The position numbers were made by a program, and so were the translations under genes. The notes beneath the pieces were generated by a model. It saw only the letters and a list, made by a program, of their open reading frames with translations, had not been told where the DNA came from and searched no databases. A stretch of DNA of 64,000 nt from Planctomycetota bacterium (GTDB lineage: Bacteria; Planctomycetota; UBA11346), in NCBI GenBank assembly GCA_038213805.1, contig JBBQSO010000007.1:9127-73126 (forward strand). Direction: 5' to 3'. Below are positions 6,419 through 34,613 of this stretch, in pieces. Position 1 is the stretch's first letter, and the number at the start of each line of letters is the position of its first letter.

Positions 6419-8524
6419 ATGTCCTGTGCCGCCTGCGGAGCCACCCTGCTGGCCGACGCGCGCTTCTGCATCATTTGCGGAGCCACGACCAAGGCGCAGC
6501 CGGCGGCCGCCGCTGCAGTGCGGCCACCGGCATCGTCCCAACCGTCCCGCGCGCTCACCGCGCCAGCGGTTGCCGCCGGCGCGGTAGCGCTGACCGGCAG
6601 CGCCGAGTCGGACCTCCTGCATCTGGTCGACGGCTACCTGATGTGGAACCTGCACCCTGGCCAGGTCGCGCGCCTGATCACGCCGGCGCTGGCCGACAGC
6701 CTTGACGGCGCACGCGGCGTGGCGGTCAACGACGGCACGCGCGCACTGGTGTACATCAACGGCGCCCTGGCCGCCGACCTGCAACACGGCCTGTTCGACG
6801 TCGCGCAGACACCGGCTGCTGAAGCCGGCACCAGTGAGCCGGCAGGGCCCGCCGCCGCACGGCGCGGCGGGCTGTTCGCCTTTGTCGCGGCCGGCACCGC
6901 GCACGCGGCGCGCATGCTGCGCGGAGCGAGCGAAGCCGCCGCGGTGCCCGCCGTTCGTGAGGGCGCGCCGGGGACCGCGGGCGCGGCGCAGCTGGTGAGC
7001 GTGCTGCTGGTGCGCCAGGGACCGATGCCGCTCATCCTCTCGCTGACGCTACCCACCGCCACGGTCACCACCGCGGTGGCCGTGCAGCTGTTTGTCGAGA
7101 TCACTGATGCGGCGGCCTTCAGCCGCGCGCTGATGCAGGTGCGCCGCGAACTCGGCCTCGACGCGCTGGCCGTGGCGCTGACGCCGGTCGTCGAGCCGGC
7201 GCTGCGCGCGGTGCTGCGCACGGTGCCCGCGGAAGGCTCATCCGAACCCGGACTGGAACTGCGCGTGGCCGCGGCGATGGGCGAGGCGCTGCGCCTGGAC
7301 TGGGGCTTCCTGCGCATCGTGCGCGTCGCCACCGTCACCATGCGGCGCGACGAGCTCGAACGCCTGGCGAGATTCCGCGAGGCCACCTATCTGAGCGAGC
7401 AGGCGCTCGAGCAGGTCAGCGCCCGCAATGAATTCGCCAACCGCCTGCACCTCGAACGCAACCGCCAGCGCATCGACCAGGCGGCGAGCACCCAGCGCCT
7501 GCAGGCCGCGCTGACCGACATCAACCGCGACGAGCTGGTCGGGCGCGACGACCTGGCGCGCTTCACCCTGCTGCTCGACCACGGCCGCCGCCTGCGCGAG
7601 GCCGCGACCGAGGGCGACTACCAGGACGCCATCGCTGGATTGCGCCGCAGCGAGCTGCTGCGCGAGGACAGCGTCGCCTATGCCGCACGCGAGGCGCAGG
7701 AGCGCCGCGAGGACCACGCCCACCGCCGCCTGCACGCGCTCGAACTCTTCGACCTCAGCCGCCAGATGGAGAGCGACCAGGCGCGCCTGCAGTGGGAGTA
7801 CGGCATCGGCGACCAGCGCATCGCGCTCGCGCTGCAGCGCCGCCTGGGCGAGCACGCGGCGCGCTTCAAACTCACCGCCCTCGACCTTGAGGAGGAGCGC
7901 CTGCGCGACGATCACCTCGCCGAGCGCGAGCGCACCGCCGACGAGCGCCGGCGCAGCGTCGCAGGGCACGCGCACGAGGAGCGTCTGGCCCAGCTCGAGA
8001 TCGCCCGCCAGGCGCAGGCTCTGGGCGAAGACCGCCGCCGCGAAGAGCACGGGCGCACCCTGGCCGCCGAGGCGCAGCGCGCCCGCGACGCGCGCGAGGC
8101 CATCCTGGTCGAGGCGCAGCGCTGGGCCGGCATGACCGTCGAGCAGATCATCGCCGCCAACGCGACGCTGACCCCGGCCGCGGCCGCCGCGCTTGCGACC
8201 AAGTACCAGGCCGAGGCGCAGGCCAGTGGCGAGCGCTCCAAGGCCGAAGCCGCTGAGAACGCCGGCGACCAGCGCGCGCGCGCCGCTGAGAGCGGCAAGG
8301 ACGAGCTGCGCCGTTTCATGACCGACCAGCTCGCGGCGATGCAGGAACTGATGCGTCAGACCCTGGATTCCAACGCACGCATCGCCGGGGCCGGCCAGCA
8401 GGATGGGCGCCGGCCTGGCTGGGCCGCCGCAGCGCCGACCGCGGCGGCACCGACCTTCTGCAGCCGCTGCGGACGGGCGCTCGGGGCGAGCGGCTGCCCG
8501 GCCTGCGATGCGCGGCCGGCCTGA
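6419..8524 (+). CDS. Zinc-ribbon protein with a long ER/EA-rich coiled-coil region and a second C-terminal zinc ribbon (function unknown)
   Basis: Start taken at MSCAACGATLLADARFCIICGAT (a CxxC...CxxC zinc ribbon) preceded by GGAG. The middle part carries charged heptad-like repeats (ERERTADERRRS...EERLAQLEIARQAQALGEDRRREEH). The C-terminus is FCSRCGRALGASGCPACD. GC3 is high throughout. Confidence 0.6.
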   Translation: MSCAACGATLLADARFCIICGATTKAQPAAAAAVRPPASSQPSRALTAPAVAAGAVALTGSAESDLLHLVDGYLMWNLHPGQVARLITPALADSLDGARGVAVNDGTRALVYINGALAADLQHGLFDVAQTPAAEAGTSEPAGPAAARRGGLFAFVAAGTAHAARMLRGASEAAAVPAVREGAPGTAGAAQLVSVLLVRQGPMPLILSLTLPTATVTTAVAVQLFVEITDAAAFSRALMQVRRELGLDALAVALTPVVEPALRAVLRTVPAEGSSEPGLELRVAAAMGEALRLDWGFLRIVRVATVTMRRDELERLARFREATYLSEQALEQVSARNEFANRLHLERNRQRIDQAASTQRLQAALTDINRDELVGRDDLARFTLLLDHGRRLREAATEGDYQDAIAGLRRSELLREDSVAYAAREAQERREDHAHRRLHALELFDLSRQMESDQARLQWEYGIGDQRIALALQRRLGEHAARFKLTALDLEEERLRDDHLAERERTADERRRSVAGHAHEERLAQLEIARQAQALGEDRRREEHGRTLAAEAQRARDAREAILVEAQRWAGMTVEQIIAANATLTPAAAAALATKYQAEAQASGERSKAEAAENAGDQRARAAESGKDELRRFMTDQLAAMQELMRQTLDSNARIAGAGQQDGRRPGWAAAAPTAAAPTFCSRCGRALGASGCPACDARPA

Positions 8525-8534
8525 GCGATCCGCC

Positions 8535-10097
8535 ATGATGCTCTGCCCCAGCTGCGGCCGCGCCTACGATCCACCGGCGCGCTTCTGTGCGACCTGCGCA
8601 CAGAGCGACGGTGCGCCGGTGGCGCTGCGCGCAGCGGGTGCGGCGCAAGCGGGCGCCGCAGCCCCAACGCGGCCCGCCGTCCAAGCCCCCACGGCCGCGG
8701 GCGGCGCTGCAGCGCGCGCTCCGGCGGCCCCGCCCACGCAGACGGCGGCCCCGCGGGCCGGGCCAGCCGCCACCCCGGGCAAACCGCAGGGCATCGCCAT
8801 CGGCGAGCAGGCGGTGGTCAGCGGCGACGTCATCGGCCACCAGGTGCAGCACATCTACCAGGGCACCGCGAACGTCACCAACATCACCCAGGTCGACGAC
8901 ACCAAGCGCATGCTGAGCTGCGCGATCTGCGGCCTGGGCGGCACGCTGGCGGACGGATTCCACGCTTGCCCGGGCTGCGCGCGCACCACCTGCGCAAAGC
9001 ATTTTGACGAGCAGGCGCGGCTGTGCGCCGACTGCCGCGATTCGGCGTCGACGGTCAAGGAAGACCTCTACCGGCAGCAGGTGCGGCGCTTCCTGGAACC
9101 GGGCTGCGTGATCGACGCGGTCGAACGCCAGCAGCTCGACGAATCGCGCCAGTCCCTGGGTCTGAGCGCGGTGCGCGCCGCCGACCTCGAACGCTCGGTC
9201 AAGGACTGCCACCCGGGTGGCGGCTGGGGCGCGCTGCAGCAGCGCCAGCTCGAGGCCGCACGGCGCATGCTGATCGCCGGCGCAGTCACCCCCGAGGCGC
9301 TCTCCTACCTCGAACCGCTCGCCCAGCGCCACCCCGAACACCACGAGCTGCAGGCGCTGTGGCTGGAGGCCCTCGCCGAGGCCGACCCGGAGCGCGCCCT
9401 GGAGCTGAGCGCACACGCCGCGGTGGACGTGCCCGCGCATCCCCTGGTGCGCGCGCGCCTGCTCGCGGCGCGCGGCCGCTACCAGGAGGCCATCGATCTG
9501 CTCGACGACGCGCGCACCAAGCAGCGGCTTGAGGTCGCGCACGTGCGCTTCACCGCCGCCGCCGCCGAACTCGCCATGCTGCAGGCGCGCGCCACCGGCA
9601 ACCGCCTGTATCTGGCGGACGCCGAGGCACGGCTCGCCGAGATCACCGGCAGCCGCGACCCCTACGTCCAGGCGTTGGTGCGCCTGCTGGCGCTGCTGCG
9701 CGGCGCCACGCCGCCGCCGCCGCCCGCGGTGCCGGCCGCGGACCTGGCGACGCGGCGCGCGCTGCTGCAGGAGGCCGCCGCGCGCGCCACCATCCAGGCG
9801 GCCGCGCCACCACCGACCGGCCGCATCCTGCGCAGCCACGCGCCGCGCTCGGCGACGGTCTGGACCACCGCACCGGGCCAGGCCGGCTACATCCGCGACG
9901 AGGACGCACGCGGCAGCGGCTCCAGCTCTGCGCAGCGTGCGATCGTCCCTGGCGCCAAACAGGTGCCGCTCGACAAACCCCCGCGCGAAGGCGACCCGCC
10001 CACCACGCGCGTCTTCCACCGCCTGACGCCGACCGAGCGCATCGCCGACGAGGGTGACGCGCCGAACGTGGCCCCGCCGGGGGACGGGGCGATCTGA
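8535..10097 (+). CDS. Zinc-ribbon / zinc-finger protein with Pro-Ala-rich linker and TPR-like helical repeats (function unknown)
   Basis: N-terminal MMLCPSCGRAYDPPARFCATCAQ zinc ribbon. A second Cys/His cluster (CAICGLGG...HACPGCARTTCAKHF...CADCRD). Helical repeat region (ALSYLEPLAQRHPEHHELQALWLEALAEADPERALELSAHAAVD...RGRYQEAIDLLDDART). Confidence 0.6.
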   Translation: MMLCPSCGRAYDPPARFCATCAQSDGAPVALRAAGAAQAGAAAPTRPAVQAPTAAGGAAARAPAAPPTQTAAPRAGPAATPGKPQGIAIGEQAVVSGDVIGHQVQHIYQGTANVTNITQVDDTKRMLSCAICGLGGTLADGFHACPGCARTTCAKHFDEQARLCADCRDSASTVKEDLYRQQVRRFLEPGCVIDAVERQQLDESRQSLGLSAVRAADLERSVKDCHPGGGWGALQQRQLEAARRMLIAGAVTPEALSYLEPLAQRHPEHHELQALWLEALAEADPERALELSAHAAVDVPAHPLVRARLLAARGRYQEAIDLLDDARTKQRLEVAHVRFTAAAAELAMLQARATGNRLYLADAEARLAEITGSRDPYVQALVRLLALLRGATPPPPPAVPAADLATRRALLQEAAARATIQAAAPPPTGRILRSHAPRSATVWTTAPGQAGYIRDEDARGSGSSSAQRAIVPGAKQVPLDKPPREGDPPTTRVFHRLTPTERIADEGDAPNVAPPGDGAI

Positions 10098-10666: not shown

Positions 10667-11413
10667 TCAGCGCAGTCCGCCGCCGGTGAGCAGCTGCTCA
10701 CCCGTCAACCAGCGCGCCTCATCGGAAGCGAGGAACACCACCACGTCAGCGATGTCGCCGGGCTGACCGAGGCGGCCGAGCGGGGTCTGGGCGACGATCT
10801 GGGCCTGGAATTCCGAGCCGATGAAGCCGGCGCTGTGCACGCCCTCGGTCTCGACCATGCCGGGATTCACGGTGTTGACGCGGATCTTCTTCGCGCCGAG
10901 CTCACGCGCGAGCACGCCGGTGATGGCGTCGACAGCGCCCTTGGTGCCGCTGTAGACGGCGCTGCCGGGGGGCGTGGTGCGCGAGACCACCGAGCCGATG
11001 TTGATGACGCTGGCGCCCTCGCCGAGGTGCGGCAGCGCGGCCTGGGTGGTGAGCAGCAGGCCGAGCACGTTGACGCCAAACTGGCGGTGGAACTGCTCTT
11101 CGGTGATGTCCTGGAGGGCGGTGAACTCGTAGACGCCGGAGTTGTTCACCAGGATGTCGAGGCGGCCGAAGGCCTTGATGCCCGCGGCGATGATGCCCTG
11201 GGCGTCGGCCTTCTTGCTGACATCGCCAGCCACGGCGACGGCCTTGCCACCGGCCTTGACGATGGCGGCGACGACCGCGTCGGCGCCGGCCTTGCTGGAG
11301 GCATAATTGACGACCACCGCCGCGCCCGCGGCGGCGAGGGCCTTGGCGATGGCTGCGCCGATGCCTTTGGATGCGCCGGTGACGACGGCTACTTTGCCGG
11401 TGAGCTTGGACAT
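10667..11413 (-). CDS. Short-chain dehydrogenase/reductase (SDR) family oxidoreductase
   Basis: TGASKGIG cofactor-binding motif, NNSG, and a YSGTKGAV catalytic YxxxK motif. 248 aa. Confidence 0.9.
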   Translation of the reverse strand: MSKLTGKVAVVTGASKGIGAAIAKALAAAGAAVVVNYASSKAGADAVVAAIVKAGGKAVAVAGDVSKKADAQGIIAAGIKAFGRLDILVNNSGVYEFTALQDITEEQFHRQFGVNVLGLLLTTQAALPHLGEGASVINIGSVVSRTTPPGSAVYSGTKGAVDAITGVLARELGAKKIRVNTVNPGMVETEGVHSAGFIGSEFQAQIVAQTPLGRLGQPGDIADVVVFLASDEARWLTGEQLLTGGGLR

Positions 11414-11552
11414 GGGAGACTCCTGGGTTGGGGTTGGCTGGGGAAGGGCGGAAGAGGCGCGAGCGCCCCGCTTGCCGCCGTCTTCCTATGTTCTATAGTT
11501 CGGATCTTACGCACTATGGAACCAGGTCAAGGCCCGTTAGGATGCACCCGTC

Positions 11553-11948
11553 GTGAAGCCCCTCACCCATCCCGCGCTGCAGGACATCACCGTCGAGGGC
11601 ATCCTCCACGCCCTGTCGGATCCAGTGCGGGTGGCGATCTACGTGGGCATCATCAAGGCCGCCTGCGCGCACAGTTGCGCCAGCCTGCTGACGGTGTGCG
11701 ACCGGCCGATCCCCAAGTCGACGCTCTCCCAGCACTTCAAGGCGCTGCGCGAAGCCGGCCTGATCCGCGGCGAGCGGCACGGCGTCGAGATGCGCAACAC
11801 CTCGCGCTGTATCGAAATCGAGCAACGTTTCCCGGGCCTGATCGCCGCCATCCTCCAGGCGCACAGCCTGCAGATCGCGGAACGGGCCCAGGCCATGTCC
11901 CCCAGGCGCAAGCCGGCCGTCCGCGGCGCGGTGCGACCCGCCAGCTGA
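11553..11948 (+). CDS. ArsR/SmtB-family HTH transcriptional regulator
   Basis: ILHALSDPVRVAIYVGI...LSQHFKALREAGLIRGERHG winged-helix signature. Divergent from the SDR gene and immediately upstream of the kinase/receiver pair. Confidence 0.8.
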   Translation: MKPLTHPALQDITVEGILHALSDPVRVAIYVGIIKAACAHSCASLLTVCDRPIPKSTLSQHFKALREAGLIRGERHGVEMRNTSRCIEIEQRFPGLIAAILQAHSLQIAERAQAMSPRRKPAVRGAVRPAS

Positions 11949-11985: not shown

Positions 11986-13134
11986 ATGACCGATCCCGCC
12001 CCCGCGTCCCAGGCCGCAGCACCGGAGGGCTGGTGGGACCAGCTGTGGTCGTCGTCCTTCATGCCGCACGGTTGCTGCTACAACTGGCAGCCGGGGATCA
12101 TCTGGTCGCACGTCATCTCGGACGCGATCATCTTTCTCGCGTACTACTCCATCCCGCTCATCCTCTTCGCCTTCGTGCGCAAGCGGAGGGACATCCCCTT
12201 CAACGCGATCTTCATCATCTTCGGCGTCTTCATCCTGGCCTGCGGCACCACCCACCTGCTCGACGTGATCGATGTGTACGTGCCGCTCTACCGGCTGGCG
12301 GCGGCGGTGAAGATCGTCACCGCCATCGTCTCGATCGCCGCGGTGTGGATGCTGGTGCCGGTGCTGCCGCAGGCCCTCGCCCTGCCCTCGCTCAAGACCA
12401 CGAACGCGCGCCTGGAATCGCTGACCGGCGATCTGCGCCGCTCGAACGCCGAACTCGAGCAGTTCGCCTACATCGCCTCGCACGATCTGCAGGAACCGCT
12501 GCGCATGATCAGCGTGCACCTGGACCTGCTCAGCCGCAGCCACGGCGCCCGCCTCGACGACAAGGGCCGCAGCCACATCGACGTCGCGACCGCGGGCGCT
12601 GAGCGCATGCGCCAGCTGATCTCCTCGCTGCTCGCTTTTGCACGCATCGATCAGATCCCGACGGCCACCGAGGCGGTCGACGCCAACCTGGCGGTGGCCG
12701 ACGCCCTGCAGAACCTTGCCGAGCAAATCGCCCAGTCCCGCGCCGAGATCGCGTGCGATCCCCTGCCGCGCGTGCCCATGGAGCGCGGGCAGCTGACCCT
12801 CATCTTCCAGAACCTGATCAGCAACGCCGTCAAGTTCGGCCGCGCGGACTCCGGACCGCCGCAGGTCGCAGTCCGCGCCGCCGCCAGGGACGGCGAGGTG
12901 GTGTTCTCGGTCCAGGACAACGGCATCGGCATCGATCCAGCCCATTTCGCCCGCATATTCCTGATCTTCCAACGCATCCACGACCGCAAGACCTTCGCGG
13001 GCAGCGGCATCGGCTTGGCGAGCGTCAAGAAGGTCGTCGAGCGGCATGGCGGCCGCATCTGGGTCGAGTCCAGGCCCGGCGCGGGCGCGACCTTCCATTT
13101 CTCAATCCCTGACCACCGCGAGGCGGCACCATGA
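11986..13134 (+). CDS. Sensor histidine kinase with an N-terminal ethylene-binding-domain (ETR1-like, 3 TM helices) fused directly to HisKA and HATPase_c
   Basis: TM1 VISDAIIFLAYYSIPLILFAFV, TM2 FGVFILACGTTHLL and TM3 AAAVKIVTAIVSIAAVWMLVPVLP align with Arabidopsis ETR1 (YISDFFIAIAYFSIPLELIYFV / FGAFIVLCGATHLI / AKVLTAVVSCATALMLVHIIP). The Cu-ligand Cys and His keep the same spacing (CGxxH). H-box IASHDLQEPLRM, and a G-box GSGIGLASVKK. Confidence 0.85.
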   Translation: MTDPAPASQAAAPEGWWDQLWSSSFMPHGCCYNWQPGIIWSHVISDAIIFLAYYSIPLILFAFVRKRRDIPFNAIFIIFGVFILACGTTHLLDVIDVYVPLYRLAAAVKIVTAIVSIAAVWMLVPVLPQALALPSLKTTNARLESLTGDLRRSNAELEQFAYIASHDLQEPLRMISVHLDLLSRSHGARLDDKGRSHIDVATAGAERMRQLISSLLAFARIDQIPTATEAVDANLAVADALQNLAEQIAQSRAEIACDPLPRVPMERGQLTLIFQNLISNAVKFGRADSGPPQVAVRAAARDGEVVFSVQDNGIGIDPAHFARIFLIFQRIHDRKTFAGSGIGLASVKKVVERHGGRIWVESRPGAGATFHFSIPDHREAAP

Positions 13135-13658
13135 ATACGAGCACGGCCAAGCGCCTTCTCATCGTCGACGACAACGAGAGCGACATCGAGCTCATCACCC
13201 TGGCCCTCGAAGAGCTGGGCTGCACCCCCGCCGTCAGCACCGCCAGCAATGGCGCGGACGCCGTGGCCCTGCTCGACCAGATGGTCACCGGCAGCAGCGC
13301 CGCCCTGCCCGACGCCATGCTCCTCGACCTGAACATGCCGCGCATGGGCGGTCAGGAAGTCCTGGCGTACATCGCCAGCCAGCCCGCGCTCGCAGCCATG
13401 CCAGTGGCGGTCCTCACCACCTCGGATTCCCCGCGCGACCGCGCCACCTGCCTGCAGCTGGGCGCATGCCTCTACATCGTGAAGGCCTACCGCCTCGCCG
13501 AATTCGTCGCCTCGCTGAAGCCGATCGTCGAGCTCCTCGGCCCCGCCACCGGCACGCCACCGCCGAACCCGCCCCAGGGCGGCAGCGCCACCGCGACACC
13601 GATGCAGGCATCGGCAGCCCGCACCGACCCACCACGAATCGAACGAACGCGCACTTAA
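13131..13658 (+). CDS. Single-domain response regulator (CheY-like receiver)
   Basis: LLIVDDNESDIELI...AMLLDLNMPRMGGQEVL...VAVLTTSDSP. Its start overlaps the kinase stop (ATGA). Confidence 0.85.
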   Translation: MNTSTAKRLLIVDDNESDIELITLALEELGCTPAVSTASNGADAVALLDQMVTGSSAALPDAMLLDLNMPRMGGQEVLAYIASQPALAAMPVAVLTTSDSPRDRATCLQLGACLYIVKAYRLAEFVASLKPIVELLGPATGTPPPNPPQGGSATATPMQASAARTDPPRIERTRT

Positions 13659-13786: not shown

Positions 13787-15142
13787 CTAAACTTCAGCGA
13801 GCGGCTGGTCCGCATCCCCGAAGCGCGGCACCTTCAGCCCCATCTTGTCCATCAGCGACAGGTGCAGACGGCACATCTGCCGCGCCGGCTTGCCGGTGTA
13901 GTCGAGCACCCGCCCGCCGGCGATGCGCCCGCCGGCGCCGCCAACGAGCACCATCGGCAGCTGATCGTTGTTGTGCTGGCCGGTCATCATGCTTGAACCG
14001 TACACCAGCATGGAATTGTCGAGCAGGGTGCGCGGTCCTTCCTGGATCGCGTCGAGCCGGCGCGCGAGGTAGGCGAGCTGCTCGAGGAAGAAGACGTTGA
14101 CCTTGAGCCAGTCCGCCGAGTCCGAGTGCGAGAGCAGGTGGTGGATCATGTAGTCCACGCCGAGGTCCGGATAGCGCTGCGAGGAGTGGTCGTTGTTGAG
14201 CTTGAGGGTGGCGAGGCGCGTGGTGTCGGTCTGGAAGCCGAGCACCACGATGTCGCACATCAGACGCATGTGCTCGCCGAGGTGCTCGGGCAGGCCGTCG
14301 GCGGGGCGCGCGCGGTCGGGCTTGGCGAGTGTCGGCTGCCAGTCCCGCGCGGTGCGCACGCGCGCCCCGGCGAGACGCTTTTCGACGTCGCGCACCGATT
14401 CCAGGTACTCGTCGAATTTACGCTGATCGCCGCTGCCCAGCTCGCGGCGCAGGCCGCCGGCGTCGTCCAGCACCGCGTCGAGCACGCCCTGGTCGCCGCG
14501 CGCGGCGCCGTCGCTGAACAGCCGGTCGAAGGCCAGCGCCGGGTAGATCTCGAGCGGCGTCGGCGTGGTCGGCGAGCTCCACGAGATGTGCGAGCTGTAG
14601 AGCATCGAGTAGTTCTTGTGCACCGACGGATTCGACTTCTCGCAGCCCAGCACCAGGCTCGGCACGGTCGTCTGGTCGCCGAAGCGCTGCGCCAGCAGCT
14701 GGTCGACGCTGGTGCCGGAACGGATCTCGCCACCGGAGGCGAGCGGCGCGCCAGAGAGCCAGTTGCCGGTCTGTGAGCTGTGGATGTTGCCCTTGGTCGC
14801 CTCGTCGTGGTAGAGGCCACGGATGAACAGCAGTTTTTTGCGGAAATCGGCCAGCGGCGCCAGCACTTTGCCCAACTCCATCTCCGCGCCGGCGCCCTTC
14901 GCCCACCATTCCTTGCTGTGGAAGCCGTTGCCCGAGAACAGCACCGCGAGACGCACCGGCGCTTCCGGTACGCCGCCCTGCGCCGCCGGTTCACCACCCC
15001 AGGCGGGCAGCGATTCGAGCCACGGCAGCGCCATGGCGACGCCCAGACCGCGCAGCAGGGTGCGGCGCGAGAGCCCGCGCGCGCGGTGCGCGCCGGGGAC
15101 GCGGTGGATGCGGTCGTTCATGGGTGCTCCGTTGTGACTCAT
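13787..15142 (-). CDS. DUF1552 domain protein (Tat-signal, partner of DUF1592/PSD proteins)
   Basis: Twin-arginine signal SRRTLLRGLGVAMALPW. Conserved DUF1552 blocks (FHSKEWW, HLLSHSDSADWLKVNVFFLEQLAYLARRLDAIQEG, MVLVGGAGGRIAGGRVLDY). Its start overlaps the stop of the upstream gene. Confidence 0.85.
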   Translation of the reverse strand: MSHNGAPMNDRIHRVPGAHRARGLSRRTLLRGLGVAMALPWLESLPAWGGEPAAQGGVPEAPVRLAVLFSGNGFHSKEWWAKGAGAEMELGKVLAPLADFRKKLLFIRGLYHDEATKGNIHSSQTGNWLSGAPLASGGEIRSGTSVDQLLAQRFGDQTTVPSLVLGCEKSNPSVHKNYSMLYSSHISWSSPTTPTPLEIYPALAFDRLFSDGAARGDQGVLDAVLDDAGGLRRELGSGDQRKFDEYLESVRDVEKRLAGARVRTARDWQPTLAKPDRARPADGLPEHLGEHMRLMCDIVVLGFQTDTTRLATLKLNNDHSSQRYPDLGVDYMIHHLLSHSDSADWLKVNVFFLEQLAYLARRLDAIQEGPRTLLDNSMLVYGSSMMTGQHNNDQLPMVLVGGAGGRIAGGRVLDYTGKPARQMCRLHLSLMDKMGLKVPRFGDADQPLAEV

Positions 15143-18100
15143 GGTTCATCGTCCTCGGACACCGCGCCGCGGCCGCGGATCTCGCGGAACTGGCGGCTGC
15201 GCACGATCAGCTCGACCGCGGTGCCCGCGCGCCAGCCGTTCGCGGCGAGCGCGGACTGCATCTCGTGGAGCAGCGGCTCGTCGGACAGGCGCACGGCGCG
15301 ACCGAGGGCGAAACCGAGCAGCTTGCGGCAGAACTGCCCGGTGAAGGCGGCCGCCCGCGGCCCGGCGAGGTAGGCGCGCAGGCCGTCCAGACCGGCGAGG
15401 CGCGTGCCGTCGGCGGTGGTCGCGGTGATATCGAGCGGTTTGCCGCCCGGGTCGCGGTCCTGGGCGTGGCCGATACCGTCGAAGCCCTCGAGCGCGAAAC
15501 CGAAGGCATCGAAGCGCTGGTGGCAGCCGGCGCAGCGCGCGTCGCTGACGTGGCGTTCGGTCAGTGCGCGCACGCTCAGGGCGGCGTCGGCCTGCTCCGG
15601 GAAGGGCGGCACGTCCTTGGGTGGGCGCGGCAGGCGCTCGCCGAGGAGGGTCTCGGAGACCCACGCGCCGCGCAGGATCGGACTGGTGCGCGAGGCGCCC
15701 GATTGCTTCGCAAGGATCGCGGCCTGGCCGAGGATGCCGCCGCGGCCAAGCGCGCGCAGGCCCTCGACGCGCCGCCACTCCGGACCGTCCGCGCTCCATG
15801 GGATGCCGTAGTGAGCGGCCAGCGCCTTGTCGACGAAGGTGTGGTCGGCGTCGAGCAGGCTGAGCACGGAGCGGTCGCTCTGAAAGAGGTCGGCGAGGAA
15901 GCGGATGGATTCCTCGTACATGCTGCCGCGCAGCGCGAGGAAGGCGGGGAAGGCCTTCTCGCTCTTCTCGTCGAGCTGGTCGAAACCGCGCACGTGCAGC
16001 CAGCTGCAGCCGAACTCGACCGCCAGGCGGCGCGCGCGCGCATCGCCCAGCAGGCGCCGCGCCTGCGCAGCGAGCGCGGCCGGATCGCGCAGCGCGCCGG
16101 AGGCCGCGGCCGCGCGCAGGGCAGCGTCGGGCGGGCCGGACCACAGGAAGTACGAGAGGCGGGTGGCCAGCTCCCAGTCGCCGACCGGGCCCTGTGCGGC
16201 GCCCGGCACCGGACGCTCGGCACGGTAGAGGAAGGCCGGCGCCGCGAGCACGCGCGTCAGTACCAGGCGCAGCGCCTCGTCGTGGTGCAGACCCTCGGTG
16301 CGCCAGGTGCCGTAGCGAGCGCGCAAGGCCTGCTGCTCGTCCGCGGTCAGCGGCCGGCGCCACGCCTGCGCCGCGAAGGCGAGCGTGGCGTCGAGCTGCA
16401 CCGGTTCGGCGTCGAGCAGGCGCTGGCGCAAGGCGGCGGCGCGCGCCGTGATCGGCTGGCGCAGCGGCTCGAGCTTACGCGGGTCGCCGTCCTGGGTGGC
16501 GTACTGCAGGATCTGCTCGAAGGCGTCGACGGTGGTCAGGGCGTCCTGGCTGACGAAGCGCAGGCGGTCCCACAGGCGGTCGAGCTGCACGCGCTGCGCG
16601 TCGTCCAGCATCAGGGTGACCAGCGGGCCGTCCTCGCGGTAGAACAGCGTCAGGGTGATGACCTCGTCCGCGGGCACTATCTTGGTGTAGCACAGCGCGG
16701 CCGGGAAGAGCGCGCGGAAATCGGCGTAGGCAGAGGTCCAACGCGCCTGCGCGGCGGCGCCGGCGATGATCGGCAACGTCGGGTCCGGAAGGAGGCCGGC
16801 GGCGGCCGGGGCGGTGGCGGCGAGCCGCGCCTGAGCGCTGGCCTCCGCCGCCGCGGGACCGGGCGCACAGGCCGCGGTGGCGACCAGCTCGCAGCCGGCG
16901 ACCAGTCCGGCAGGCAGGCGCACGGCGAGGATGGTGCCAATCGCCACGCACAGGTCGTCGGCGTCGCAGGCGGCGCCGTCGGGGCGCTTGCCGAACAGCG
17001 CCGGATCGAGGCCCCACGGCGAGTCCGCGGCCGGGACCGCCGGCGTGGTGGCCGCGGCGAGCGGGCCGGCGAACGAGGCGAGCTGCCGGTAGAGCTTCGC
17101 GTCCGCGCCGTCGCCCGCCGGAGCCGGTGCCAGCAGCAGGCGCTGCAGATCATCAGCGAGGCGCGCCTGCGTGGCCGGATCGGCGGTGGCCTGCCAGCGC
17201 GCCAAAAGCGAGTCTGCGGGCGCGCCGGGGTGCTCGCTCATCACCGCGGTCGGCTCGCTGTAGAAATGCCACACCGCGGGATGCCCAGCGGCGTCGGCGT
17301 GCGGGTTGCCGGCAAGGATATCGCCCGACACCTCGCGCGTCAGCGACCACGTGACCGGGTTCGGGCCGTCACCGGTCAGGGTCAGCTCGACGTCGGTGAG
17401 GTCGCAGGAATGGTCGGCATTGCGCGGTCCGACCAGCAGCGCGATCAGGTCGCCCGGCTGCACGGTGACGCCGTCGAGCGGGCCGAAGGGCACGCTGTCG
17501 GCGTTGATCGCGGTGCCGGCGGCCAGACGCCGGCGCGCGCTGCCGCGGCGCAGCTCAAGCACCCACTCCACGCCGTTGCCGCATTCCGGATGCGCGTGCA
17601 TGACCGCGCCGGCGATGCGCAGCGTCGCGGTCACCGGGCTTTGCCAGCCCACCGCCACGCAGCGCGTCGGCGACGGGTGCACGACCACGCCGTGCGCCTT
17701 CATCTTGCCCGGGATGCGCACCGCCTGGTCGGAGGCGTTGGCCATCACCGACGGCGTTTCTGTCGAACCCCAGCCGGTGACGAACTCGTAGGCGCCGGCG
17801 CGGGGCAGGCGGTTGTCGAAGTGTTCAAGCGCGAGGTCGCCGGCGAAGCCGACGCCGAGATAGCCGAGCCACGCAGCGAGCACACCGGGATCGATATGGT
17901 GGCGCTGCGCCAGCTGCGCGACGTCGCCATGCGCGTCGCCAGCGGCGTCGACCGCGGCGGCGAGCGCCGCCGCGGTGCCGGCGAAGGTGCGCACGCGCCG
18001 CGCGAGCAGGTCGTCGACGTAGGCGCGCGCCACGCGCAGCGGCAGCGGCGGCCGGCCGGGGATGACCAGACGCGGCTGTCGCCATACCACCAGGCCGGCA

Positions 18101-19224
18101 GGCGCGCCGGGCACCGTCGCCAGCGCCGACAGGTACGCAGTCGCCTCGCCGCTGGTGTGGTCGGCGGGGAAGGCCAGCTTCAGCTCCTGCTCGGCGACCA
18201 GGGGCGAGACCGGCTCCATCCAGGCGGTGGCGCCGCCGGTGACGCCGATGTCGCCCACACTGTTGAAGCGAAACAGTGCGCGCTGCCACTGCGCAACTGC
18301 ATCGGCCAAGCCGGCGGCGTCGCCGGCACGCCAGCGCGCGCGCAGACCGTCGAGCAGTTCCGAGGGCGGGCCGCCGGCGAGGGACGCGATCAAATTGGCA
18401 AGGTAGCGCGGATTGAGGCCATGCGCGCGCGCCACCGCGGCCGCGTCACCGCCGGCGCGCAGTTCGTTGGCCGCAGCCAGGTAGCGCTCCAGCGGCAGGC
18501 GGCCGCCCTGGTTCTTGTCCATGGGGATGCCCTGCCGGGTCACCATGTCGCTGCTGCCGGTCGCGCTGAAGCCTGCGTAGAAGGCGCGCAGCTGCGCGAC
18601 CAGTTCATCGGTGGCATCACGACGCGTGGTCGCCGCCGAGAAGCCGATGCCGTCCGGCAGCAGCAGCGCGTGGGCGGCGACGGCCTTGGCCGCATCCAGG
18701 TACTTGCCGAGCAGCGCCGGCGACATCGCCAGGGCCATGCCGGTGTTGCTGAAGCCTTCGCCGGCGGCGCCGTCGGCCGGGAACTCGCGCGCCACGTCCA
18801 GGCTCTCGACGCCGGTCAGGTCGCGCAGCGTGTAGGTGTACTCGGCATTCGACAGGCGGCGCAGCACCACCGGACCGGGATCGCCCGCGGTCTGGCGGGC
18901 GACCACGTCGAGCGCGCCGCGCACGCCGGCGAGCAGGCGCGAACGCTCCTCGGCGGTCGACTGCGGTTTGCCCGCGGGCGGCATGTCGCCATCCGCGACC
19001 TGCTCGAGCACCTTCTGCCAGATGCGCGCGTGGCGGGCGAGGCGGCCATCGGCGACGACGCTTTCGAGGTCGAGGTCGCCCTTGTGCTTGGCCTGCGAGT
19101 GGCAGGTCAGGCAGCGGTCCTTGAGGATCGGCGTAACGGCGGCGAGCGGTGCGGCGCTCTCCGCGGACGAAACGGTGGCGGCGCAGGCGAACAGCGCGGC
19201 GACGAGCAGGCGGCGGGCGCGCAT
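15139..19224 (-). CDS. Large PSD-family protein (cytochrome-c-like N-terminus plus DUF1587/DUF1592/DUF1595/DUF1588/DUF1585-type domains)
   Basis: 1361 aa with a signal peptide and a CLTCHS heme-like motif near the N-terminus. The usual DUF1592-class architecture is found next to a DUF1552 gene. Confidence 0.8.
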   Translation of the reverse strand: MRARRLLVAALFACAATVSSAESAAPLAAVTPILKDRCLTCHSQAKHKGDLDLESVVADGRLARHARIWQKVLEQVADGDMPPAGKPQSTAEERSRLLAGVRGALDVVARQTAGDPGPVVLRRLSNAEYTYTLRDLTGVESLDVAREFPADGAAGEGFSNTGMALAMSPALLGKYLDAAKAVAAHALLLPDGIGFSAATTRRDATDELVAQLRAFYAGFSATGSSDMVTRQGIPMDKNQGGRLPLERYLAAANELRAGGDAAAVARAHGLNPRYLANLIASLAGGPPSELLDGLRARWRAGDAAGLADAVAQWQRALFRFNSVGDIGVTGGATAWMEPVSPLVAEQELKLAFPADHTSGEATAYLSALATVPGAPAGLVVWRQPRLVIPGRPPLPLRVARAYVDDLLARRVRTFAGTAAALAAAVDAAGDAHGDVAQLAQRHHIDPGVLAAWLGYLGVGFAGDLALEHFDNRLPRAGAYEFVTGWGSTETPSVMANASDQAVRIPGKMKAHGVVVHPSPTRCVAVGWQSPVTATLRIAGAVMHAHPECGNGVEWVLELRRGSARRRLAAGTAINADSVPFGPLDGVTVQPGDLIALLVGPRNADHSCDLTDVELTLTGDGPNPVTWSLTREVSGDILAGNPHADAAGHPAVWHFYSEPTAVMSEHPGAPADSLLARWQATADPATQARLADDLQRLLLAPAPAGDGADAKLYRQLASFAGPLAAATTPAVPAADSPWGLDPALFGKRPDGAACDADDLCVAIGTILAVRLPAGLVAGCELVATAACAPGPAAAEASAQARLAATAPAAAGLLPDPTLPIIAGAAAQARWTSAYADFRALFPAALCYTKIVPADEVITLTLFYREDGPLVTLMLDDAQRVQLDRLWDRLRFVSQDALTTVDAFEQILQYATQDGDPRKLEPLRQPITARAAALRQRLLDAEPVQLDATLAFAAQAWRRPLTADEQQALRARYGTWRTEGLHHDEALRLVLTRVLAAPAFLYRAERPVPGAAQGPVGDWELATRLSYFLWSGPPDAALRAAAASGALRDPAALAAQARRLLGDARARRLAVEFGCSWLHVRGFDQLDEKSEKAFPAFLALRGSMYEESIRFLADLFQSDRSVLSLLDADHTFVDKALAAHYGIPWSADGPEWRRVEGLRALGRGGILGQAAILAKQSGASRTSPILRGAWVSETLLGERLPRPPKDVPPFPEQADAALSVRALTERHVSDARCAGCHQRFDAFGFALEGFDGIGHAQDRDPGGKPLDITATTADGTRLAGLDGLRAYLAGPRAAAFTGQFCRKLLGFALGRAVRLSDEPLLHEMQSALAANGWRAGTAVELIVRSRQFREIRGRGAVSEDDEP

Positions 19225-25298: not shown

Positions 25299-25445
25299 GA
25301 CCGCGTGTCCGCCAGGGATGGCCGGGACCCGGATATGGCGATCTCCATCCCCGCTCGCGCGCGCACTGCGGTCATTCGCGCTGCGCAGTTCCATTCCGCA
25401 CCATCGCCATCGTCCTCGCCCACGCCTCCCCCTCCTGAGGTGCCC

Positions 25446-28091
25446 ATGCGCATGCCATTCCTCCCCGTCGCACTCGCTCTGGCTGCCTGCGCGCCGCTGG
25501 CCGCCTCCGACGTGTTCGCAGATTTCGCCATCCCCGACCTGCTGCCGCTGGCCAAAAAACACAGCGTGATGAACACCGGCGCGATCAAGCTCAAGAGCCA
25601 CTACGACCGCGACCTAGGCAAGCTCGGCGAACTGAAGGCGGGCTCGCTGCGCCTCGACCTGTCGATCGGCAAGCGCGACGATGCGCCGATGTGGTGGGAC
25701 GTGGTCAATGGCCCGGATCCCGACCACCTTGGCTACAATTTCGCCAACGTTGACTGGCTGGATGGTGAACTGACCAAGCAGGACACCCTGCCCTACTGGG
25801 GCCTCGTCTATATCCCGATACCATTCCAGGATCCACGTCAGCCAGCGGACGACTGGCGCTTCCTCGATCCCGACCGCTTCAACTGGGACCGCTGGCAGGA
25901 GGCTTCACGCACCTTCGCGGGTCACGTGCGCGGCCTGCACCAGCATGGCTACCTCGAGGCGCTGAACGAGCCCGACCTGTACCTGCCGTGGATCACCGGA
26001 ACCGACACCGAAAACCTCAAGAAGGGATATTTCCTGCGCGTGCCCAACATGGACACCCAGCTTGAGCCGACCACCTTCCAGATGTACGTGCGCACGGCCA
26101 AGGGCTTCAAGGAGGGCGATCCGGACGCGGTCGTCGGCGGTCCGGCGCTGGCGGGCGCAGCGATGCAGTGGACGGGCCCGTTCCTCGACTATGTCGCGGG
26201 CAACCAGGCGCCGATCGACTTCTTCTCGTTCCACGTGATCAGCGGCGACGATCCGTTCAGCGTGGTCATCCCGCGCACCCAGGGCGTGCGCAATCAGCTC
26301 GCCGAACGCGGCTGGGCGCACTCGGTCGAGATCCACATGAACGAGTACAACGCCTACGGTCATCCCTGGGACCAGGACACCAACTCCAGCGACCTCGCCG
26401 TGCATGTCATCGAGAACTGCCACGACCTGCTCGGCCAGCACGACCTGACCGTGATCAGCTGGGCACAGGCGATGGACAACAGCCAGGTACAGGGCGCAGT
26501 GAACGGCGACCAGACCGCCGGCCTGATCGACTGGGAGGGCAACCGCCGGCGCGCCTTCAGCGCCTTCGCGATGTACGGCGACATCCCGATGCCGAGCTTT
26601 CGCAGCAGCGAAACTGGCAGCATCCACACCATGGCCGGCGCCGACGCGGGCAAGGCCGGCATCATCGTGTGGAACAGTGATGGCGCGCAGGCCAGCGACG
26701 TGACCGTGACCGCGCACCACATCCCCTTCGCGAACGCGGTGTTCCGCCTGGTGGTGATCGACCCGACCGGCACCGGCAACCCACAGGGCCTGAACCCGTC
26801 GGTGCAGGAGACCCAGGCGATCACCAATCCGATGTTCCGCATCGTGCACCTGCCGCCGCGTTCAGTCGCCTACCTGTCGTGGACCAGCACCACCGCACCA
26901 GCGCTGGCGGCGCCCGCAGGCCAGGTGGTGCGCGTCCACCACGACTACCCGAACCGCGCCACCCACTCGTGGGCGGAATACGACCGCCGCGCCTGGACCG
27001 CGTGCCTGGGCATGGACGACGCGAACGACCTGCAGATCGTCGGCACCACGGTGCGCGAGCTCGCAACCACGGTGCACGTGTCCTGCCGCACGGCCGGCGC
27101 GCCCGCCAGCGGCACGCTGGGCATGCGCATCGACTACCTGACCGGCGGCGGCTATACGAAGAGCGTGCTCTTCCACGGCGGCCTGGCCGCTGGCTTCACT
27201 CTCCCGTGGGGCAGCGGGCGCCCCGTCGACCAGAGCGTGGCGATCGCGCTCGGTGACGCCGACATCATTCCGGGCGATTTCGCACCGGCGGGCTGGCTCG
27301 GGCAGGCGGTGGTGACGTACGTGATGAACCATACTGGGAACGGCACGCGTGCGACCTTCGTGCTGAGCGCCGGTGGGTCGACGGGGACGGGAACAGGAAC
27401 GGGAACGGGAACGGGAACGGGAACGGGAACGGGAACGGGAACGGGAACGGGAACCGGAACCGGTACTGGCACAGGGACCGGGACGGGTCTGCCCACCGGA
27501 GGCAGCGGCGTCGGCCTGACCGGCCAGTACTTCGCCACGAGAGACCTGAGCGGCCCGGCGCTGACGCGCACCGACCCGGTGATCGATTTCACCTGGGACA
27601 CCACGCCACCCATCGCGGGCATCGGTCTGGCCGACTACAGCGTACGCTGGACCGGCACCATCCAGGCGCCGACCAGCGAGCCCTACACCTTCCACGCGTT
27701 CAGCGACGATGGCGTGCGCCTGACGGTCGACGGCCACCAGCTCATCGATCATTGGGTCGACCAGGGGGTGACGGAATCCACCGGCACCATCGCCCTGACC
27801 GCCGGGCACAGCTACGCCATCACCATGGAATACTACCAGCACGCTGGCGGCGCGACCGCGCGGCTGCTGTGGAGCACGCCCTCAAGTCCGACCGCCGCCG
27901 TGGTGCCCCAGTCGCGGCTCATTCCGGCGGCGGGTGGCGCAGCGGGGACGGGAACGGGTGGCGGTACTCCGGCGATCTCAAGCACGAACGGCAGCGGCTG
28001 CGGCTCAGGAATCGCGGCGGTGGTGCTGATGCTGAGCGCACTGTCGATGATACGCCTGCGCGGCGCGGGTGGGCGTCAGCCGCCGGAATGA
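25446..28091 (+). CDS. Secreted clan GH-A glycoside hydrolase (GH39/GH5-like) with (Gly-Thr)n linker, PA14 domain and Cys-Gly/TM/Arg C-terminal sorting-like tail
   Basis: ATG preceded by GAGG. Signal peptide MRMPFLPVALALAACAPLAA. LEALNEPDL motif (NEP acid/base of clan GH-A). A run of about 19 GT dipeptides. PA14 block (GQYFATRDLSGP...YTFHAFSDDGVRLTVDG...YAITMEYYQ). Ends GSGCGSGIAAVVLMLSALSMIRLRGAGGRQPPE. Confidence 0.8.
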   Translation: MRMPFLPVALALAACAPLAASDVFADFAIPDLLPLAKKHSVMNTGAIKLKSHYDRDLGKLGELKAGSLRLDLSIGKRDDAPMWWDVVNGPDPDHLGYNFANVDWLDGELTKQDTLPYWGLVYIPIPFQDPRQPADDWRFLDPDRFNWDRWQEASRTFAGHVRGLHQHGYLEALNEPDLYLPWITGTDTENLKKGYFLRVPNMDTQLEPTTFQMYVRTAKGFKEGDPDAVVGGPALAGAAMQWTGPFLDYVAGNQAPIDFFSFHVISGDDPFSVVIPRTQGVRNQLAERGWAHSVEIHMNEYNAYGHPWDQDTNSSDLAVHVIENCHDLLGQHDLTVISWAQAMDNSQVQGAVNGDQTAGLIDWEGNRRRAFSAFAMYGDIPMPSFRSSETGSIHTMAGADAGKAGIIVWNSDGAQASDVTVTAHHIPFANAVFRLVVIDPTGTGNPQGLNPSVQETQAITNPMFRIVHLPPRSVAYLSWTSTTAPALAAPAGQVVRVHHDYPNRATHSWAEYDRRAWTACLGMDDANDLQIVGTTVRELATTVHVSCRTAGAPASGTLGMRIDYLTGGGYTKSVLFHGGLAAGFTLPWGSGRPVDQSVAIALGDADIIPGDFAPAGWLGQAVVTYVMNHTGNGTRATFVLSAGGSTGTGTGTGTGTGTGTGTGTGTGTGTGTGTGTGTGTGLPTGGSGVGLTGQYFATRDLSGPALTRTDPVIDFTWDTTPPIAGIGLADYSVRWTGTIQAPTSEPYTFHAFSDDGVRLTVDGHQLIDHWVDQGVTESTGTIALTAGHSYAITMEYYQHAGGATARLLWSTPSSPTAAVVPQSRLIPAAGGAAGTGTGGGTPAISSTNGSGCGSGIAAVVLMLSALSMIRLRGAGGRQPPE
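27382..27487 (+). repeat. In-frame hexanucleotide repeat (GGGACG/GGAACG/GGAACC)n encoding a (Gly-Thr)n linker
   Basis: acggggacgggaacaggaacgggaacggga... runs for about 100 bp inside the GH-A/PA14 gene. Confidence 0.85.
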
Positions 28092-34384: not shown

Positions 34385-34613
34385 CGGTCAATGGATGTGC
34401 CGGAGCGCCCAGTGGGCGCTTGGCCGCACCGTCTCTCCACACGGATCGCCCGGCTTCTTCCCGTAAGAGTCGTCGGCGCATCCCCCATCCGCAAACGGTT
34501 CGCCACCCGCCAAGCATCGGGCCTCGCGATCACATCACTGCCTGCGTGCAGGATGTGCGCTGCAGGTGTGCTCCGCATTGCGGCCAGATGGATCTCCCAG
34601 AAGGATTGCTCAC

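Follow-up and report, generated by a model that had tools for sequence, protein, structure and literature searches.

The gene pair at positions 11986 to 13658 of the window (the whole analyzed stretch of 64,000 nucleotides from a Planctomycetota bacterium) raises the question whether this bacterium senses ethylene with a domain like that of the plant receptors, how the signal would be passed on, and whether an ArsR-like gene directly upstream has any part in it. The first gene of the pair (11986..13134, forward strand) is an open reading frame for a sensor histidine kinase of 382 amino acids, for which Pfam matches to ETR1_N, HisKA, and HATPase_c and an AF2 model were obtained. The domain order is an N-terminal ethylene-binding domain, one long signaling helix, the DHp (HisKA) domain, and HATPase_c. 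An identical protein (P0001) is present at NCBI, encoded on a contig of 105,931 nt. The ethylene-binding domain covers residues 38–133 (12097..12384, forward strand) and comprises three transmembrane helices. The initial annotation had called it bona fide and had proposed a profile search as a check. In this search the Pfam profile ETR1_N (PF25487) was matched over positions 2–97 of 97, with an E-value of 3e-34 and a score of 117.6 bits, compared with a gathering score of 27 bits. As judged from the sequence, such a full-profile match is far beyond chance, and thus the assignment was upheld.

Seven residues of ETR1 are needed for ethylene binding, i.e., D25, Y32, I35, P36, I62, C65, and H69 (PMC11819568, citing Wang 2006). 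All seven have counterparts in the kinase, namely D46, Y53, I56, P57, I83, C86, and H90. In addition, K109 corresponds to the ETR1 signaling lysine K91, and thus the D25-K91 pair is present as D46/K109. The predicted Cu(I) ligands are contained in the sequence C86-G-T-T-H90 of helix 2 (12241..12255, forward strand), which is part of the string ACGTTH at residues 85–90; they were assigned using the alignment, the conservation, and the structural model. The equivalence of C86 and H90 with ETR1 Cys65 and His69 follows from a gapless alignment with the first exon of a plant ETR1-type gene (P0128; BLASTP: 35% identity over 136 amino acids, E-value 5e-19), the product of which is 97% identical to the N-terminus of Arabidopsis ETR1. 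A residue-for-residue alignment with all three helices of ETR1 had been claimed; it was found for helices 1 and 2, which align without gaps, but the loop that leads to helix 3 contains a gap of three residues. The seven binding residues and K109 are invariant in 30 homologs of the same architecture (alignment A1) as well as in a joint alignment of bacterial and plant sequences (alignment A3). Among 147 diverse representatives of the domain each of them is present in 144–147, and C86 and H90 are present in all 147. Position 46 is occupied by Asp and not by the Asn variant, which at the D25-equivalent position is associated with low affinity (PMC10266040).

The AF2 model of the full-length kinase had a mean pLDDT of 84. 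Helices were predicted at residues 36–66, 73–96, and 102–131 (pLDDT about 85–95), both in the full-length model and in a model of the domain alone, which all represent monomers, while the functional unit is a dimer. In both models Cys86 and His90 are situated inside the helix 73–96, at a distance of one helical turn, in agreement with the earlier placement of this pair within helix 2. A single long helix (residues 136–189) links helix 3 to the phospho-accepting His166, with a break of four residues after helix 3. His166 belongs to the HisKA/DHp domain (Pfam HisKA, residues 157–223; 12454..12654, forward strand), and its motif SHDLQEP is followed by the catalytic domain HATPase_c (Pfam, residues 269–376, E-value 4e-27; 12790..13113, forward strand). 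The histidine is invariant in alignment A1, and so are N280, D311/G313/G315, F328, and G339/G341/G343 of the catalytic domain; the H, N, G1, F, and G2 boxes are thus all intact. The best solved relatives of the core (residues 140–376) are bacteriophytochrome kinases (8uph, 8avv; E-value 2.5e-32). A Pfam search of the kinase yielded neither a GAF nor a PAS domain, verifying that the ethylene-binding domain is fused straight to HisKA/HATPase. The initial annotation had regarded the missing GAF domain as noteworthy, but GAF was found in only 2 of 74 sampled bacterial proteins with this domain, and its absence is therefore normal.

The second gene of the pair (13131..13658, forward strand) is an open reading frame for a stand-alone receiver, i.e., a response regulator, of 175 amino acids with Response_reg as the only Pfam match. 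It overlaps the kinase gene by 4 nt (ATGA), the ATG being located at 13131–13133 and the TGA at 13132–13134, and a GAGG motif precedes the start codon by 8–11 nt. The receiver fold comprises residues 10–129 and contains D13/D14, D66, and K118; the lysine is followed by Ala at the position where Pro is usual. Its best solved relatives are the phytochrome-associated receiver 6xvu, RcpA (1k68), and Rcp1 (1i3c), with E-values from 9e-21 to 7e-14. No output domain was detected with Pfam and no obvious target is encoded nearby. The C-terminal tail is rich in Pro, Ala, and Gly and is not conserved, and a search among the homologs revealed no conserved motif in it. A receiver gene adjoins the kinase gene in 8 of 8 contigs with homologs and in 9 of 10 distinct loci analyzed by tblastn. 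The stand-alone receiver is thus translationally coupled, as the initial annotation had stated, and it is also a conserved partner of the kinase.

Taken together, the two genes form a two-component system with a copper-dependent ethylene-binding domain as the probable input, that is, a minimal Cu(I)/ethylene sensor on a kinase and receiver of the Cph1/Rcp1 type, which is probably inhibited by ethylene; we would assign this reading a probability of roughly 0.78. The kinase would reside in the inner membrane with its three helices, with a periplasmic N-terminus and with the Arg/Lys-rich loop that connects helices 1 and 2 on the cytoplasmic side. Homology suggests that each monomer coordinates one Cu(I) through Cys86 and His90 in helix 2, with Asp46 in helix 1 positioning the metal. 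Ethylene is expected to bind to this Cu(I), whereupon the Asp46-Lys109 bridge would change and helix 3 would move. The movement could be transmitted from helix 3 via the four-residue break and the long helix 136–189 to His166; because helix 3 continues into the helix with His166, the signal would be passed to the kinase core directly, with neither a PAS nor a GAF domain in between. In analogy to characterized receptors, the kinase would probably be active without ethylene and inhibited in its presence, i.e., ethylene would act as an inverse agonist. Such a behavior has been proposed for ETR1, SynEtr1, and AzoEtr1 (discussion of PMC11819568). In the pair of the window, ethylene would then reduce the transfer of phosphate to Asp66 of the receiver, a single-domain protein that is co-translated with the kinase. 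A receiver that is devoid of an output domain must act by binding to another protein, and the control of motility or of biofilm formation might serve as precedents for such an output.

The closest experimentally studied counterpart is AzoEtr1 of Azospirillum brasilense Sp7, for which binding of 14C-ethylene has been shown and which controls both the formation of biofilms and the colonization of roots (PLoS Genet 2025; PMC11819568). The view that kinases with this domain are essentially uncharacterized outside of cyanobacteria and plants has thus been overtaken by the literature, since ethylene binding of AzoEtr1 was shown in 2025 (PMC11819568). AzoEtr1 shares the three-helix domain with all seven binding residues and the lysine (40% identity over the domain, E-value 1e-31). 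The gene organization is also alike, because a single-domain receiver gene, AzoRR(etr1), is located directly downstream of the histidine kinase gene and overlaps its stop codon (PMC11819568). In contrast, AzoEtr1 has 525 amino acids and contains a PAS domain between the sensor and the kinase, which is missing from the window kinase; residues of about 140–260 have no counterpart in the latter. The identity of the two kinase cores amounts to only 29%, the H-box reads AHEMSQPLN in AzoEtr1 and SHDLQEPLR in the window kinase, and it is the window kinase and receiver that are Cph1/Rcp1-like. In addition, AzoEtr1 has been validated experimentally, whereas the properties of the window kinase are predicted.

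Cph1/Rcp1 and the bacteriophytochrome pairs, in turn, are found as the best solved relatives of both the kinase core and the receiver, and close homologs of the kinase carry the label "sensor kinase Cph1" at JGI. However, the PAS-GAF-PHY bilin photosensor is not present in the window kinase according to Pfam, and the input is a membrane-embedded ethylene-binding domain instead. SynEtr1 (Slr1212/UirS) of Synechocystis PCC 6803 has a phytochrome-like GAF photosensor between the sensor and the kinase, and it is paired with a DNA-binding transcription factor instead of a free-standing receiver. The Arabidopsis receptors ETR1 and ERS1, which represent subfamily 1 of the plant receptors, share the domain family PF25487, the equivalents of Cys65, His69, Asp25, and Lys91, and a histidine kinase that follows the domain. 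The plant receptors differ in having a GAF domain between the sensor and the kinase, and ETR1 also has a fused receiver, while in the window a GAF domain is lacking and the receiver is a separate protein. Ethylene signaling in plants proceeds mainly via CTR1 and is independent of the histidine kinase activity (PMC11819568), whereas the output of the window kinase would presumably be classical phosphotransfer. A kinase encoded on plasmid p2 of Novosphingobium sp. ES2-1 (WP_230487955.1) has the same architecture of about 380 amino acids together with an overlapping downstream receiver gene, and is 35% identical from end to end. The short kinases with the order ethylene-binding domain, HisKA, and HATPase_c, which are annotated as "ATP-binding protein" or "sensor histidine kinase", show no difference in kind and are paralogs or orthologs from other lineages.

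The pair is real, but it is ordinary, and thousands of such genes are known. The ETR1_N family comprises 8578 representatives of 50%-identity clusters at an E-value of at most 0.001, and it spans many phyla that are not associated with plants, including Nitrospinae, Obscuribacterales, Acidobacteria, and Bacteroidota. The architecture of about 380 amino acids recurred in dozens of the 120 best full-length matches, and 35 of the 147 best domain representatives have a length of 340–440 amino acids. The closest non-identical relatives of the kinase are metagenome proteins with 58–64% identity. A scan of genome contigs with the full-length alignment was dominated by the kinase-core pattern, and the ethylene-binding domain was present in only about 5 of 80 loci, among which the genome of the window itself did not appear. 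Because bacterial kinases with this domain are already cataloged in Pfam and experimental precedents exist in Synechocystis and Azospirillum, the locus changes little for the field. Nevertheless, the kinase, with neither a PAS nor a GAF linker and with a single-domain receiver as partner, represents the simplest natural wiring of an ethylene sensor to classical phosphotransfer. No structure of any such ethylene-binding domain has been solved in the PDB, and the short architecture is thus an attractive candidate for structural work and also for the control of a kinase by ethylene in vitro.

A further conserved element precedes helix 1 and lies outside of the Pfam match. It is a near-invariant PHGxC motif, which in the window kinase is P27-H28-G29-C30-C31 (12064..12078, forward strand), was identified by its conservation in the representatives, and is predicted to be periplasmic. 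H28 is present in 145, G29 in 146, and C31 in 147 of the 147 domain representatives. AzoEtr1 also carries a motif of this type (LPHGVC). In a MAFFT alignment C31 is paired with the second Cys of the N-terminal CxC of plant receptors, which corresponds to ETR1 Cys6, although the two cysteines are not equally far from helix 1, and the models are those of monomers. No function is assigned to PHGxC in the publications consulted. Candidate roles are a disulfide of the dimer, like that formed by ETR1 Cys4/Cys6, or a metal site. It is tempting to speculate that PHGxC is a second functional site of the bacterial domains, either for capturing copper and loading it onto the buried Cys/His site or as a redox-sensitive disulfide between the subunits that gates signaling, although we regard this as rather unlikely. 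The kinase of about 380 amino acids would then be a minimal complete ethylene sensor, and it would be the simplest system for solving the structure of the domain and for the construction of ethylene biosensors.

The same motif bears on the foremost alternative, namely that the domain is a genuine three-helix Cu(I) module that reports something other than ethylene in this bacterium. Candidates would be the status of the envelope with regard to copper or redox conditions, or else small molecules with an affinity to Cu(I), e.g., alkenes other than ethylene, CO, and isocyanides, and PHGxC could serve as a second metal site or as a thiol-redox site. It is in line with this alternative that PHGxC is conserved as well as the copper ligands are while lacking an assigned function in the publications consulted, that the family is very large and extends over many phyla without plant association, and that ETR1 itself binds other olefins and 1-MCP. 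In a setting without plants, a small unsaturated molecule with affinity to Cu(I) could be the physiological ligand. However, soils and waters commonly contain ethylene from microbial and abiotic sources, and the conservation is not confined to the copper ligands, but includes all residues that ETR1 specifically requires to bind ethylene. In addition, high-affinity binding of ethylene is reported for the two bacterial members tested so far (PMC11819568; PMC6682694). A ligand other than ethylene is therefore considered improbable, and ethylene remains the favored input.

A different source of a copper link would be the gene upstream of the kinase gene. The initial annotation had described it as an ArsR/SmtB metalloregulator and had drawn attention to it because ethylene binding requires a copper cofactor. 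The gene (11553..11948, forward strand) encodes a protein of 131 amino acids, which was verified to be a winged-helix regulator of the ArsR family (HTH_20: 35.4 bits, cutoff 27; HTH_5: 24.9 bits, cutoff 22). In contrast, its classification as a metalloregulator could not be sustained, since it reached only 36.4 bits with the NCBIfam model NF033788, below the cutoff of 55. The metal sites of ArsR/SmtB proteins are a CXC motif in alpha-3 and a DxHx10HxxE motif in alpha-5, and an inspection of the sequence revealed neither of the two; C42 is the only conserved Cys among seven ArsR homologs.

Several observations would fit to a copper or metal sensor that forms a functional unit of three genes with the kinase and the receiver, for instance by adjusting the expression of these two genes to the supply of the cofactor. 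The ArsR-like gene is on the same strand and separated from the kinase gene by only 37 nt. The only promoter-like site was found upstream of it (11472–11499) and no terminator-like site was found between the genes, so that read-through transcription is possible in this genome. The arrangement is retained on a single contig of 6443 nt from a relative, whose kinase and ArsR-like protein share their 90%-identity clusters with those of the window. However, an ArsR homolog was present in none of 13 loci that encode kinases with the domain. Eight homologs of the kinase had no adjoining ArsR-family gene, with little upstream sequence available for two of them, and the upstream neighbors were other genes, i.e., AraC (twice), AAA/TPR, a protein of 698 amino acids without known function, a receiver, and an acyltransferase. 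Instead, the ArsR homologs (56–61% identity), which are encoded on plasmids of Rhizobium and Methylobacterium, are divergent from the gene of an orthologous dehydrogenase in three of the four regions with annotation, and no kinase gene follows downstream in these plasmid regions. The plasmid dehydrogenases, annotated as "glucose 1-dehydrogenase", are 68–73% identical to the short-chain dehydrogenase of 248 amino acids that is encoded divergently from the ArsR-like gene in the window (10667..11413, reverse strand; Pfam adh_short_C2, E-value 3e-59). Thus, the ArsR-like gene belongs with the divergent dehydrogenase gene and is part of a different module, both genes being outside of the two-component system. 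A functional unit of all three genes is very improbable, and the copper link via the ArsR-like gene was rejected, because metal-site motifs are missing and the gene is not linked to kinases with the domain. A tempting connection between the receptor and a "metalloregulator" is thereby removed.

Lastly, the domain could be a degenerate relic that serves only as membrane anchor and dimerization module of a kinase that is regulated otherwise, as might be imagined for a kinase without an additional sensory domain and in view of the many membrane kinases in which transmembrane helices are mere anchors, but this has hardly any probability, because the polar residues D46, C86, T89, H90, K109, and S116 within the membrane are near-totally conserved in hundreds of divergent sequences, which points to selection for the ligand site rather than for hydrophobic helices alone.

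Elsewhere in the window, a CusCBA-like operon, for which a link to the pair was considered, is located at 34566–40940, at a distance of 21 kb and with unrelated genes in between. The named relatives of its CusA-like protein, with 70–73% identity, are distributed over Acidobacteria, Thermoanaerobaculia, and Myxococcota. The window has a GC content of about 69%, and its gene content, which would fit several phyla, includes DUF1552/PSD proteins and many glycoside hydrolases.

Three open reading frames lie in a row on the forward strand, and they encode an ArsR-like protein (11553-11948, 131 aa, GTG start), a histidine kinase (11986-13134, 382 aa) and a receiver protein (13131-13658, 175 aa). The ArsR-like gene is divergent from a short-chain dehydrogenase gene (10667-11413, reverse strand), and the receiver gene is convergent with a DUF1552 gene (13787-15142, reverse strand). 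Pfam analysis assigned ArsR-type HTH_20 and HTH_5 domains to the first protein and a receiver domain alone to the third. The kinase contains the ethylene-binding domain ETR1_N (residues 38-133, profile positions 2-97 of 97, E 3e-34, 117.6 bits versus a gathering score of 27), HisKA (residues 157-223) and HATPase_c (residues 269-376), and the scan of the 382-aa protein revealed neither GAF nor PAS. The open reading frames and their domains therefore verified the kinase, receiver and ArsR-type genes of the initial annotation.

The kinase was compared with first exons of plant ethylene receptors, which had been retrieved from the database with an Arabidopsis ETR1 N-terminus (at most 97% identity). 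It was 35% identical to the ETR1-type exon P0128 over 136 residues (BLASTP, E 5e-19), and the alignment was gapless over helices 1 and 2. Ethylene binding by ETR1 needs the seven residues D25, Y32, I35, P36, I62, C65 and H69, and a K91-D25 bridge relays the signal to helix 3 (PMC11819568, PMC10266040). The counterparts of these eight residues in the kinase are D46, Y53, I56, P57, I83, C86, H90 and K109. All of them were invariant among 30 homologues of the same architecture as well as in a joint bacterial and plant alignment, and each was kept in 144-147 of 147 diverse cluster representatives. A natural Asn variant at the D25 position lowers the affinity about 100-fold (PMC10266040, PMC11971883); the kinase carries Asp, not the low-affinity Asn. 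AlphaFold2 models of the full-length kinase and of residues 20-140 alone (mean pLDDT 84.1 and 84.5) both contained helices at 36-66, 73-96 and 102-131 with pLDDT values of about 85-95, and in both Cys86 and His90 were located within helix 2. No solved structure of an ethylene-binding domain was found for comparison. The strong profile match and the position of the Cys/His pair were the two points at which the proposed domain could have failed, and it therefore withstood both: the domain assignment of the kinase N-terminus is right, and the finding is real.

An additional motif, P27-H28-G29-x-C31 (12064-12078), precedes helix 1 in a predicted periplasmic segment outside the ETR1_N match. Its conservation in the 147 representatives equalled that of C86 and H90, the copper ligands (H28 145/147, G29 146/147, C31 147/147), it is present in AzoEtr1, the ethylene receptor kinase of Azospirillum brasilense Sp7, as LPHGVC, and C31 was aligned with plant Cys6 (MAFFT). 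The PHGCC found here is an uncommon variant, because His or Tyr normally occupies position 30. The role of the motif is not addressed in the literature cited on ethylene-binding domains; it may link the subunits of a dimer by a disulfide or serve as an entry site for copper.

In the transmitter part, a four-residue break (ALPS) after helix 3 is followed in the AlphaFold2 model by a single helix (136-189) that extends into the phospho-accepting His166. The kinase retains the complete set of H, N, G1, F and G2 boxes, which are invariant in the homologue alignment, and the receiver has D13/D14, D66 and K118. The closest solved relatives of the kinase core were bacteriophytochrome kinases (E about 1e-32), those of the receiver were the phytochrome-associated single-domain receivers 6xvu, RcpA and Rcp1, and in agreement with this JGI labels close kinase homologues "Cph1". 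Thus, judged by their relatives, both proteins together are a Cph1/Rcp1-type module, in which the photosensor is replaced by a membrane ethylene-binding domain. In this clade, Lys118 of the receiver is followed by Ala or Ser, while Pro is usual. The receiver ends with a Pro/Ala/Gly-rich tail of about 40 residues, the sequence of which is not conserved among relatives.

The nearest characterized system is AzoEtr1 with its receiver (PMC11819568). AzoEtr1 has 525 aa and a domain-PAS-kinase architecture, and its single-domain receiver (135 aa) overlaps the kinase stop codon. Residues 1-130 showed saturable 14C-ethylene binding, the exchanges D35A or C75A abolished the function, and biofilm formation and root colonization are under ethylene regulation (PMC11819568). 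Using the AzoEtr1 sequence from plasmid ABSP7_p1, the sensor domains were found to be 40% identical without gaps (E 1e-31). In contrast, the kinase cores were only 29% identical, the H-box is of a different type, and the kinase described here lacks the PAS domain and has a Cph1/Rcp1-type transmitter. From this comparison the system is therefore predicted to act like AzoEtr1, as a PAS-less variant with a transmitter of the latter type. The kinase belongs to the same ETR1_N family as the plant receptors, but does not share their domain-GAF-kinase architecture.

From the RKRR sequence in the loop that joins helices 1 and 2, a periplasmic N-terminus and a cytoplasmic kinase are predicted. By homology, Cu(I) would be held by Cys86 and His90 with Asp46, and ethylene would bind to the copper at this site. 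Helix 3 would then be shifted via the Asp46-Lys109 bridge, and the change would travel along helix 136-189 to His166. Ethylene would probably inhibit autophosphorylation; inverse-agonist behavior has been inferred for ETR1, SynEtr1 and AzoEtr1 (PMC11819568). Asp66 of the receiver would consequently be less phosphorylated, and the receiver would act on a partner.

A search with kinase residues 20-140 alone against 1.84 billion cluster representatives yielded 8578 proteins at E <= 0.001, of which 6270 reached E <= 1e-10. Among the 147 best representatives, 35 had a length of 340-440 aa, and 74 were scanned with Pfam: ETR1_N was present in all 74, HATPase_c in 52, PAS in 35 and GAF in only 2. The exact domain-HisKA-HATPase_c architecture occurred dozens of times among the 120 best full-length matches, with sources including Nitrospinae, Nostoc and Obscuribacterales. 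Among cultured bacteria, this form is represented on a Novosphingobium plasmid by a 384-aa protein, which has an overlapping receiver and bears no annotation beyond "ATP-binding protein". Therefore, bacterial members normally lack GAF, and the short form is among the commonest architectures, so that the missing GAF domain, correctly noticed before, is not noteworthy. That such proteins are found in many proteobacteria and cyanobacteria, with outputs ranging "from simple to complex", had already been reported (PMC7700396). The system thus adds one member to an already recognized, well-populated family, of which proteobacterial members have been studied experimentally.

The proposed coupling of kinase and receiver was supported by the ATGA overlap of the two genes (ATG 13131-13133, TGA 13132-13134), and a GAGG is present 8-11 nt 5' of the receiver ATG. 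In contigs of eight kinase homologues (47-64% identity), a stand-alone receiver gene always adjoined the kinase gene, in seven cases immediately downstream and usually overlapping, and in one immediately upstream; with tblastn, 10 distinct loci for domain-carrying kinases were examined, and 9 of them contained the receiver. In one case, that of P0084 (47% identity), CheA and CheB genes lie just ahead of the pair (L087/L088 519-6631), which points to a possible chemotaxis-type output in some lineages. AzoEtr1 is localized at the flagellated pole.

The upstream gene had been taken for a metalloregulator linked to the copper cofactor. It is indeed of the ArsR type, but the metalloregulator assignment did not hold: the protein reached 36.4 bits versus a cutoff of 55 with the NCBIfam model, and inspection by eye for the motifs described in the literature revealed neither the alpha-3 CXC nor the alpha-5 DxHx10HxxE site. 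C42 is the only Cys conserved among its homologues. No ArsR-family gene was found beside any of the eight kinase homologues, two of which had little upstream sequence; the visible upstream neighbors were AraC (twice), AAA/TPR, a 698-aa unknown protein, a receiver and an acyltransferase. An ArsR homologue was detectable at 0 of 13 loci encoding a domain-carrying kinase, and the gene was kept only in a relative of the same 90%-identity cluster. Homologues with 56-61% identity occur on Rhizobium and Methylobacterium plasmids, and in 3 of 4 annotated plasmid regions they are divergent from a 747-nt "glucose 1-dehydrogenase" gene, the product of which is 68-73% identical to the dehydrogenase encoded here; no kinase gene was present downstream of these plasmid pairs. 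Therefore, the conserved unit consists of the ArsR-like regulator and the dehydrogenase (10667-11948), which probably responds to small molecules or redox state and has no connection to the kinase, and the position beside the kinase is a local accident. The proposed copper link is not supported. The gap to the kinase is 37 nt, the sole promoter-like site lies upstream of the ArsR-like gene, and no terminator-like site was found between the two genes. Transcription may read through into the kinase gene, which gives no support to a copper link.

Elsewhere in the window, a CusC/CusB/CusA-like heavy-metal efflux operon (34566-40940, forward strand) encodes an outer-membrane factor, a CusB-like adaptor that carries a heavy-metal-binding domain, and an RND pump of the CusA/CzcA family (TIGR00914, 1117 bits); no evidence connected this operon, 21 kb away, with the kinase. 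Two long overlapping open reading frames (8316-10097; 564 aa forward, 567 aa reverse) had no Pfam match; the forward product contains CxxC...CxxC zinc-ribbon-like motifs, and spurious long frames are expected at about 75% GC. The DUF1552 (HXXSHH) gene is followed by a gene whose 1361-aa product contains PSCyt1, PSD2-5 and PSCyt3 domains (together 13787-19224, reverse strand), a "planctomycete cytochrome" pair typical of Planctomycetota, Verrucomicrobiota and Acidobacteriota. Many large secreted-type carbohydrate-active proteins (25305-28091, 42940-47484, 48399-50372, 52880-55687 and 60214-63387), with GH39+PA14, GH31, Laminin_G_3, PA14+DUF6797 and beta-helix+PA14 among their domains, suggest a polysaccharide-degrading lifestyle.
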